A stretch of DNA of 5,365 nucleotides from the IMG/VR virus record IMGVR_UViG_2602041568_000011; one strand, given 5' to 3'. The stretch is from a virus. Taxonomy: Duplodnaviria; Heunggongvirae; Uroviricota; Caudoviricetes. Both the position numbers and the translations under genes were made by a program. The notes beneath the pieces are model-generated. The model did not search any database, was not told the origin of the DNA, and saw nothing but the letters and a program-made list of their open reading frames with translations. This document shows, in pieces, positions 4,317-5,203 of the stretch. How positions within the stretch are numbered: position 1 is the stretch's first letter; every line of letters starts with the position of its first letter.

Positions 4317-4709
4317 TTAGGGGTATGATTGCAGAACTGTAATACCTTCTTTCAACTGTTCAAAATTCTTAAACTTTCTGAGCCTTTCTCTACATAGATC
4401 TCTGGACTTACCATTATCATCTTTATGAATGAATATAATATTCACATCATAACTTAACTTTCCATACATTGGGCCAGGGCAGGCAAGAAAATTATCATGT
4501 CGATATCTGTTACCAACAAACCAATACCCCTCATATCCCAACATGGATAAGAAGTCTACAACATCATCTGTAACTTTCTTATTAACAGCCTCACAGAATA
4601 TTGCTGGCTTGTTATTTTTAATTGTATTCACAGCACCACGCATACAATTGATTTCATATCCTTCAACATCTATTTTGATGAAATCAATTTTTATCCCTAC
4701 AGACTCCAT
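4317..4709 (-). CDS. C-terminal half of an FkbM-family (Methyltransf_21) methyltransferase; out of frame with the N-terminal half in this sequence
   Basis: Contains the FkbM signature IDFIKIDVEGYE. The frame stays open upstream through the repeat tract (…PAQQCIDIITIDAF-MESV…). AT-rich codon usage unlike the flanking phage genes. Confidence 0.8.
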   Translation of the reverse strand: MESVGIKIDFIKIDVEGYEINCMRGAVNTIKNNKPAIFCEAVNKKVTDDVVDFLSMLGYEGYWFVGNRYRHDNFLACPGPMYGKLSYDVNIIFIHKDDNGKSRDLCRERLRKFKNFEQLKEGITVLQSYP

Positions 4710-4717
4710 AAATGCAT

Positions 4718-5203
4718 CTATGGTAATAATATCAATACACTGCTGGGCTGGGCTGGGCTGGGCTGGGCTGGGCTGGGCTGGGCATCATAGCACCCTTCAT
4801 TATTATAACCATTTTCTATAGAAAATGAACCGTAATTCCAGGGTTTATCGTATGAAGATACAGGAATTATAATATCCCCGCAAATATCACCAACAGCTTT
4901 GTTATATGGCATAACATTCAATACGTTATTTATAGCCAGATTTCCACACAACATATTAAATATTGGTGGCTGAGGTTCAAAACATATTACCTTTCCATTT
5001 CTACATATTTTTGATAATGGTATTGTATGCAAGCCTATATTTGCACCAATCTCTAAAACATTGCTGCCTTCTGATAATAATGTTTTGTATAAGTCGACCT
5101 CAACTTCACACCATTCGCCATAATTTGAGGCATAGTTAGAGATCATATCGCCCCGGAGTAAAATAAAACTTCCCCATCTTAACTCTTTAATATACGTTCT
5201 CAT
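4718..5203 (-). CDS. N-terminal half of the FkbM-family methyltransferase, reading through the repeat tract into a frameshifted tail
   Basis: Contains the SAM-binding-type motif VLEIGANIG followed by ICFEP. ATG at 5203 with AAGGA SD. The protein ends ...YDAQPSPAQPSPAQPSSVLILLP*, where everything after the tract is out-of-frame sequence. Confidence 0.8.
   Translation of the reverse strand: MRTYIKELRWGSFILLRGDMISNYASNYGEWCEVEVDLYKTLLSEGSNVLEIGANIGLHTIPLSKICRNGKVICFEPQPPIFNMLCGNLAINNVLNVMPYNKAVGDICGDIIIPVSSYDKPWNYGSFSIENGYNNEGCYDAQPSPAQPSPAQPSSVLILLP
4742..4783. repeat. Pentanucleotide simple-sequence repeat, (GCTGG)8 + GC on the plus strand, which is (GCCCA)n on the coding strand
   Basis: Eight perfect tandem 5-nt units seen directly. 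It sits exactly at the junction of the two methyltransferase half-ORFs and translates as AQPSP repeats with no stop codon in any frame. Confidence 0.95.

Follow-up and report, generated by a model that had tools for sequence, protein, structure and literature searches.

The stretch of DNA analyzed here, 5,365 nt of the virus record IMGVR_UViG_2602041568_000011 (Caudoviricetes) and referred to below as the window, carries on its minus strand a gene for an FkbM-family S-adenosylmethionine (SAM)-dependent methyltransferase (4317..5203), which is split by an out-of-frame repeat count and which, in an in-frame allele, is annotated as one coding sequence (CDS) in Escherichia coli E9. The split occurs at a perfect pentanucleotide tract, (GCCCA)8 with a partial unit GC, at 4742-4783 on the minus strand (full units at 4744-4783), which we regard as the frame-setting hypermutable element of a gene that is probably switched by changes in the unit number. 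The upstream open reading frame (ORF) at 4718..5203 (minus strand, 161 amino acids [aa]) consists of the genuine N-terminal half of the enzyme in residues 1-140, followed by AQPSP repeats and then by the out-of-frame tail SSVLILLP and a stop codon. The N-terminal half contains the SAM-binding motif I, VLEIGANIG, and an invariant WNYG loop, and a Shine-Dalgarno-like AAGGA, read from the sequence at 5211..5215 (minus strand), is located 7 nt before the ATG at 5203. The sequence of the 161-aa product is an exact match to RefSeq WP_071783542.1, named from Shigella sonnei. The C-terminal half (QCIDIITID...IDFIKIDVEGYE...QSYP and a stop codon) is located at 4317..4741 (minus strand) and covers positions 113-172 of the PF05050 profile, and the ORF found there mechanically, starting from the ATG at 4709, has 130 aa. 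The original prediction, which had been made by a model from the letters of the window, had placed a perfect 8-unit tract between two ORFs at 4718-5203 and 4317-4709, and both ORFs are present as it gave them.

Tandem repeats were sought with Tandem Repeats Finder (TRF) using the whole window as the search space, and a single array was found, at 4742-4783, with a period of 5, 8.4 copies and 100% matches, which bears out the perfection of the tract. Consistently, a 4-unit probe with a tolerance of up to 2 mismatches had 5 matches in the window versus 0 in 200 dinucleotide-preserving shuffles. On the coding strand, (GCCCA)n is stop-free in all three frames, as had been predicted and as the tails of the OFF alleles agree with, and AQPSP is the cyclic peptide read in each of them, as follows from 5 and 3 being coprime. 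When the tract was replaced in silico, 4, 7, 10 and 13 units resulted in one ORF of 288, 293, 298 and 303 aa, respectively, and the remaining counts between 5 and 12 units resulted in truncated products of 153-166 aa. For the loci whose flanks are identical to those of the window, designated as lineage A, the frame rule is that the C-terminal half is translated only when the unit number n satisfies n mod 3 = 1, and at any other count translation ends 2-8 codons past the tract. The window allele, with 8 units, is out of frame and, hence, OFF. The designation of the gene as currently OFF was accordingly correct as regards the reading frame, and the prediction that losing one unit or gaining two would fuse the halves into a protein of about 293 aa is in agreement with the 293 and 298 aa obtained for 7 and 10 units. 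A non-triplet perfect repeat is thus present inside the ORF, as in simple sequence repeat (SSR) contingency loci, and its copy number toggles between full-length and truncated translation, both in the in silico series and among the natural ON and OFF alleles described below. On the plus strand, which is the template strand of the gene, the tract reads (CTGGG)n, in which G3 runs are spaced 2 nt apart in a G-quadruplex-type G3N2 pattern with a C-rich complement, and this pattern suggests that the tract may gain additional instability or hinder transcription. An antisense ORF of 92 aa at 4543-4821 on the plus strand runs over the tract and shows no sign of being a gene; it probably exists merely since the repeat is stop-free in all six frames.

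That the two halves belong to one enzyme is indicated by a profile search with the conceptual 7-unit protein, a check proposed in the original prediction. Its residues 51-222 matched positions 1-171 of the 173 of PF05050 (Methyltransf_21) with an E value of 3e-15 and 57.2 bits (cut-off, 22.7), and its residues 49-203 matched the NCBIfam model TIGR01444 (fkbM_fam) with an E value of 1.3e-27 and 97 bits (cut-off, 37.7), so that both matches continue across the tract, well over the curated cut-offs, and the FkbM models span the junction. PHROG 8156, annotated as methyltransferase, was also matched by the protein. The ORFs taken singly were less informative, the C-terminal one representing the last third of the domain only and the N-terminal one having generic SAM-motif resemblance only. 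The protein is thus covered by the family profiles and has the class I Rossmann fold with a glycine-rich motif I that is characteristic of the family. The possibility that the two ORFs are separate genes was rejected on the span of the profiles over the junction and on colinear homologues. A further check, in which intact homologues might have revealed two unrelated genes, also came out in favor of one gene, as single-ORF alleles of 288 aa and 298 aa are present in E. coli.

Because a phage-borne methyltransferase gene that contains an SSR could also be read as that of a phase-variable DNA methyltransferase, which would run a phasevarion or protect phage DNA like Mod of Neisseria and Haemophilus, we compared this reading with the family assignment. 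It is in line with the known phase-variable mod genes having pentanucleotide repeats and with the presence of a separate gene annotated as DNA-methyltransferase a few kb downstream in related prophages. However, the matches of the protein are to FkbM (PF05050 and TIGR01444) and none is to the DNA N6, N4 or C5 families; there is no conserved (D/N/S)PP(Y/F), the QPPI of this clade being QRPI or QRLI in homologues; a target-recognition domain is lacking; and the fold matches are generic. A DNA methyltransferase of a Type III Mod-like phasevarion was therefore rejected as a candidate on the absence of motif IV and of family matches, and we consider this reading highly improbable.

The length of the tract was found to vary greatly among loci that are otherwise identical. 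In lineage A, unit counts of 2, 3, 5, 6, 8, 10, 11, 11, 12, 14, 17, 17, 18, 20, 26 and 27 were recorded, with a 4-unit allele found in addition among the proteins. Without a single substitution in 1460 flanking nt, seven loci had 8, 17, 12, 11, 18, 17 and 20 units. Moreover, a locus with 12 units (L004) and one with 11 units (L015) were identical over 6398 nt but for one gap, consistent with a one-unit step, and two loci with 18 and 20 units (L019 and L022, respectively) differed by one gap and 1 mismatch over 6393 nt. The flanks being the same and the counts differing, no other site in the region changes nearly as fast as the tract, for which single-unit steps are visible, and the length of the tract outpaces flank change among close strains in the manner of an SSR contingency locus. 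The heterogeneity across homologous loci by which the original prediction had proposed to be judged is thus present, extending over 2-27 units with identical flanks and over 3-33 units among loci of the sister lineage described below.

It could be argued that such length differences are sequencing or assembly artefacts, as short-read assemblies frequently break at the tract. On dozens of contigs, FkbM proteins annotated as partial have CIDIITID as their first or ...CYDA as their last residues (P0123 on 21 contigs; also P0127, P0129 and P0135), and, as they are bounded at the tract, they indicate that short-read assemblies commonly break there and that the gene is annotated as two FkbM genes or as fragments. 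These breaks fit long or heterogeneous tracts, without proving either, and are the one indirect hint at switching within a clonal population. However, differences of up to 30 units are found in finished chromosomes and in independent contigs that read through the tract, in which the units are perfect and the flanks identical, and the same series of alleles appears in protein records from many submitters. An artefact was thus rejected, the variation being present in finished genomes, and we assign practically no probability to it.

Natural alleles of both states were identified. The OFF alleles have 2, 3, 5, 8, 11, 12, 14, 17, 18, 20, 26 and 27 units, and the ON alleles have 4 and 10 units. The 10-unit ON allele, encoding 298 aa, is the one annotated as a single FkbM CDS in E. 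coli E9 and is present on 9 contigs, and the 4-unit ON allele, encoding 288 aa, is present on 14 contigs. In one viral locus (L008; 7118-7160, reverse strand of the stored locus; IMGVR_UViG_2602041579_000011), 6 units are followed directly by a 10-nt deletion, by which the junction becomes …GCCCA GCC ATTATTACC in place of …GCAGTGTATTGATATTATTACC, and the frame is restored to give a 288-aa protein without QQCID. Judged from its sequence, this deletion looks like a compensatory, possibly phase-locking, mutation. A second small deletion at the border of the tract was observed in a 26-unit allele (L018, 2840-2975; GCA_900450015.1), which is without 3 nt (GCA) right after the tract.

The same repeat is present at the same position in a sister lineage, designated as lineage B, which shares 86% DNA identity and 81-83% protein identity with lineage A. 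It has slightly different flanks, with the consequence that its ON phase is n = 2 mod 3, and its alleles have 2, 3, 3, 5 and 33 units, those that are ON encoding 286 aa and 291 aa. Between lineages A and B, the synonymous divergence (dS) was near saturation, with 0.93 for the N-terminal half and 2.2-2.4 for the C-terminal half, and the ratio of nonsynonymous to synonymous divergence (dN/dS) was about 0.06 in both halves (0.06-0.07). The equally low dN/dS, together with the retention of the tract, indicates that purifying selection has acted on the sequence beyond the tract just as on that before it for as long as the tract has been present. Furthermore, a second lesion was found in 0 of the 19 complete loci, and one class of tract length restores the full ORF in each of them. 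As far as these comparisons of sequence can tell, the gene appears to be functional when ON and to be kept by selection, as would be the case for an SSR contingency locus. A lineage-B variant that is in frame (P0155, 278 aa) has an extra frameshift near the C-terminus, with …RGGREIYVEKG… in place of …RGGSRNLCRERL…, and this is the sole second lesion seen in the family.

These data bear on the question of whether the tract is no more than a site of frequent mutation in a gene that has lost its importance, where length would drift neutrally, most copies would be dead and no switch would be selected. Such drift is suggested by the sample of loci that was unbiased by look-ups (n = 10; 5 complete genomes, 3 viral contigs, 1 metagenome contig and the window), in which 2 of the 10 loci were ON, which is no more than the 1/3 expected from random drift of the tract. 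It is also suggested by the rarity of the locus in E. coli, by the often degraded state of the host prophages, with insertion sequence (IS) elements and pseudogenes nearby, and by the added C-terminal frameshift of P0155. On the other hand, dN/dS stayed at about 0.06 in both halves over a dS of 0.9-2.4, with the tract kept at the same site, a second disabling lesion was absent from all complete loci, and ON alleles are present on many contigs. Thus, the dN/dS values, the intactness of 19 of the 19 loci and the restoration of the frame in L008 argue against a decaying pseudogene, and we consider neutral drift unlikely as the explanation, while giving it some weight.

With respect to the protein, the tract is positioned after the invariant WNYG loop and before the IKIDVEG strand. 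In the AlphaFold model of the 4-unit allele (pLDDT, the per-residue confidence score, 94.6; pTM, the score for the overall fold, 0.93), the tract residues 141-147 close a long coil (approximately residues 124-145) and enter a strand (residues 146-153), and they form the least confident stretch, with a pLDDT of about 80. The tract would thus map largely to a low-confidence coil that could plausibly tolerate AQPSP repeats. The distant homologues (40-47% identity), which are from metagenomes and Betaproteobacteria, are colinear and have neither tract nor insertion at this site, and no frame-shifting repeat was found in 80 FkbM homologues on viral contigs (27-40% identity), except for one A9 run in L109. 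It may also be considered that the tract mainly encodes an AQPSP loop of variable length that tunes activity or specificity, as the RLKTQDS heptads of NeuO do, with the frameshifted alleles as a by-product. In-frame alleles of 2, 4, 5 and 10 units do exist, the WNYG loop directly preceding the tract may be near the substrate site, and the catalytic efficiency of NeuO increases with the heptad number (PMC3046976). However, a 5-nt unit alters the frame at two of three steps, the majority of the alleles observed are out of frame, and the distant homologues without the insertion work. Tuning of this kind is, in addition, compatible with a switch, to which it would add rather than replace it, and as the main role of the tract we regard it as very improbable.

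Taken together, we propose that the locus is a functional FkbM methyltransferase gene that is toggled by slipped-strand changes in the unit number of its intragenic (GCCCA)n tract, and we give this reading a probability of roughly 0.78. The candidate slipped-strand phase-variable switch of the original prediction is thus supported by the comparative tests of tract, frame and homologues. MutS-dependent mismatch repair for the most part misses loops of 5 nt, so that such tracts are unstable even in repair-proficient cells. Replication slippage in the tract would add or remove units, presumably frequently and reversibly within one clone, and each gain or loss of one unit would shift the frame, because the unit is 5 nt long. 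In lineage A, n = 1 mod 3 (4, 7, 10 and so on) would produce the complete enzyme, its loop extended by (AQPSP)n, and the OFF allele of the window would be turned ON by one unit lost or two gained. If the gene is expressed in the lysogen, a lysogen population would contain both ON and OFF cells for the enzyme, and this heterogeneity could be useful.

Several observations weigh against this proposal. In addition to the fraction of ON loci in the unbiased sample, all ON alleles seen have 10 or fewer units and OFF alleles have up to 33, in numbers that are too small to interpret. The tract is located in the middle of the gene and not near its 5' end, and OFF alleles would still encode a 140-aa fragment. 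The locus is rare, with the gene being carried by 5 of 5426 complete E. coli genomes and with no match among the INPHARED phages, the distant mode included, or among the PLSDB plasmids. A consensus scan found no consensus sigma-70 promoter just upstream of 5203 (minus strand). Finally, the sequence and fold searches provided no clue to the substrate beyond generic class I methyltransferases, and no conserved partner was found in the gene neighborhoods of distant homologues, for which the contigs encoding P0013, P0020 and P0039 were inspected. The neighborhoods of these three are unrelated and chromosomal, consisting of TsaE/APH and NTP-transferase genes, of Wzy and glycosyltransferase genes, and of genes of mixed metabolism, respectively.

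The original prediction had held that such switches were not described for prophage cargo in enterobacteria, and this is incorrect, as neuO, which is carried by prophage CUS-3 of E. coli K1 and encodes a polysialic acid O-acetyltransferase, had already been published under the term mobile contingency locus (Deszo et al. 2005; PMC3046976). In neuO, a heptanucleotide variable number tandem repeat (VNTR) of 2-93 copies is present at the 5' end, is ON at every third copy number and is translated into heptads (PMC3046976). The locus in the window is like neuO in that an accessory modification enzyme is carried on a temperate E. coli phage, that a non-triplet VNTR in the coding region permits full-length translation at every third copy number, that the copy range between isolates is wide (2-93 for neuO and 2-33 for the GCCCA tract), and that the repeat is translated as a peptide repeat within the enzyme. 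It is unlike neuO in the enzyme, which is an FkbM class I methyltransferase versus a left-handed beta-helix acetyltransferase; in the unit, which is GCCCA (5 nt) versus AAGACTC (7 nt); in the position of the tract, which is mid-gene in a loop of the catalytic domain versus 2 nt past the start codon; and in the phage, where it lies in the lambdoid nin/late-control region between hokD and DUF968-rusA-Q versus a P22-like phage. In addition, NeuO has a known substrate and phenotype, whereas the enzyme of the window is predicted from sequence.

Other switches share part of this arrangement. In the Type III mod phasevarions of Neisseria, Haemophilus and Moraxella, a tetra- or pentanucleotide tract in a methyltransferase ORF likewise undergoes slipped-strand mispairing, but these genes are chromosomal and encode N6-adenine DNA methyltransferases of restriction-modification systems, whereas the protein of the window matches FkbM models only. 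The gene cj1426 of Campylobacter jejuni, for a capsule heptose 6-O-methyltransferase, is similar in that a glycan-modifying methyltransferase is switched by an intragenic SSR, with switching rates measured at about 2e-2 (PMC8437040), but it differs in having a poly-G homopolymer tract and in being located in a chromosomal capsule cluster of an SSR-rich organism. The contingency loci of T2 and T4 (Gomez, Barrick and Waters, bioRxiv 10.1101/2025.10.21.683753) are also slippage-prone tracts in phage genes, with frameshift heterogeneity that is read as bet-hedging, but the phages are virulent and it is their own genes (agt and rIIA) that are affected, in lytic growth. The text of that report contains none of the words pentanucleotide, temperate, lambdoid and methyltransferase, and prophage occurs in the title of one reference only. 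As for the FkbM family itself (PF05050/TIGR01444; structure 2PY6), the characterized members act on polyketides or sugars, and neither the literature search nor the 80 viral homologues revealed a member that is switched by an intragenic SSR. No published description of the locus was found either, in a literature search on the tract sequence, the AQPSP peptide, and FkbM/Methyltransf_21 with phase variation or phage.

With regard to the target of the enzyme, sequence and fold comparisons return a generic class I methyltransferase core only, with the FkbM structure 2PY6 as the nearest in root-mean-square deviation and identity. Our best guess is a cell-surface glycan or a small molecule, whose methylation would modify phage or immune recognition; it is favored because of the analogy with cj1426 and with an FkbM gene of Serratia symbiotica, which is among the lipopolysaccharide (LPS)-associated mutations of that organism and whose disruption goes with phage resistance (PMC12505973). 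A surface glycan or metabolite, in preference to DNA, had also been the guess of the original prediction, and it is a reasonable one. It is a tentative possibility, which we hold to be rather less probable than its opposite, that the locus serves for bet-hedging at the cell surface, where the ON enzyme would O-methylate a glycan (LPS/O-antigen, enterobacterial common antigen or a capsule sugar) or some other molecule that the lysogen exposes and thereby reversibly alter the susceptibility to phages or immunity, and OFF cells would be spared the cost. Alternatively, the enzyme may act in lytic growth, on a nucleic acid or a signaling molecule and against host defence, with the tract diversifying the progeny. 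Lysogens locked ON and locked OFF would open the substrate to direct testing.

Simple-sequence contingency loci are generally regarded as scarce in E. coli, whose textbook phase switches operate by DNA inversion or Dam methylation. A survey indicated that E. coli avoids SSRs in coding regions (PMC3315296). The locus is probably a further prophage-borne repeat switch in E. coli of the type already described, differing from neuO in the enzyme, the repeat, the position of the tract and the phage module. As a second such locus after neuO, it would be evidence that temperate phages can bring ready-made hypermutable switches into a switch-poor host, and, if bet-hedging at the surface holds true, E. 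coli/Shigella would have a second mobile contingency locus whose mechanism is independent of that of neuO. In practical terms, the tract is a natural high-resolution VNTR marker, explains broken assemblies and the split or partial annotations of FkbM genes, and offers a tractable system for the rates of pentanucleotide slippage in a repair-proficient enterobacterium.

The methyltransferase gene is a cargo gene of a lambdoid prophage in E. coli/Shigella. The 3' end of hokD (...VAVFTAYEPEE and a stop codon; 5328..5365, minus strand) lies directly upstream of it, as it does in all related prophages, and the genes downstream, which belong to the lambdoid late-control region, are those of a DUF968 protein (2355-3404), RusA (1983-2342), antiterminator Q (1297-1992) and a P21-type holin S (285-500), with four tRNA genes (Met-CAT, Lys-TTT, Thr-TGT and Gly-TCC; 793-1102) between Q and the holin, all on the minus strand. 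The gene order is identical in the related loci L001-L004 and L014-L023. The GC content of the methyltransferase gene is about 0.32-0.40 versus about 0.5 in the adjacent phage genes, and this low value fits acquired cargo. The absence of the gene from most related prophages, as reflected in the number of carriers among complete genomes, supports its status as cargo as well. It is thus located in a prophage, dispensable for phage functions and atypical in composition, as morons are. The consensus scan detected no terminator-like site anywhere in 3800-5365 and, hence, none between hokD and the methyltransferase gene, so that read-through transcription from hokD into the latter appears possible from the sequence.

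The approximately 900 nt between the methyltransferase gene and the DUF968 gene (3406-4316, minus strand) contain small ORFs only (e.g., 3406-3795 and 3602-3916), for which no Pfam match was found and which carry inconsistent annotations in related genomes (hypothetical proteins; 89-91 aa and 40 aa). The slot of the tRNA genes is occupied in related prophages by other sets (Ile and Lys, Thr and Gly, or Arg) and at times by a DNA methyltransferase or a MazF toxin. E. coli E9 has, immediately before hokD (L003, 5012-5134), a remnant annotated as dTDP-6-deoxy-L-hexose 3-O-methyltransferase, which is a second trace of sugar-methyltransferase-like cargo in the same prophage module.

As for its distribution, the gene is found in livestock-associated E. 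coli, in addition to the matching protein record named from S. sonnei. Metagenomes and species-representative genomes were scanned with a pattern of flank plus tract, and these scans yielded one true locus (L011) and chance matches (L009, L010, L012 and L013). A scan of viral contigs for (GCCCA)n with at least 4 units yielded 49 loci, only two of which (L007 and L008) share the flanks of the methyltransferase gene. Many of these 49 loci are in high-GC contigs, with the tract within long ORFs, and among the 49 are viral contigs with 8-13 GCCCA units in unrelated sequence (L030, 5800-5864; L056, 3530-3579; L060, 1-55; L036, L048, L050, L054 and L068), some of which might be further repeat switches.

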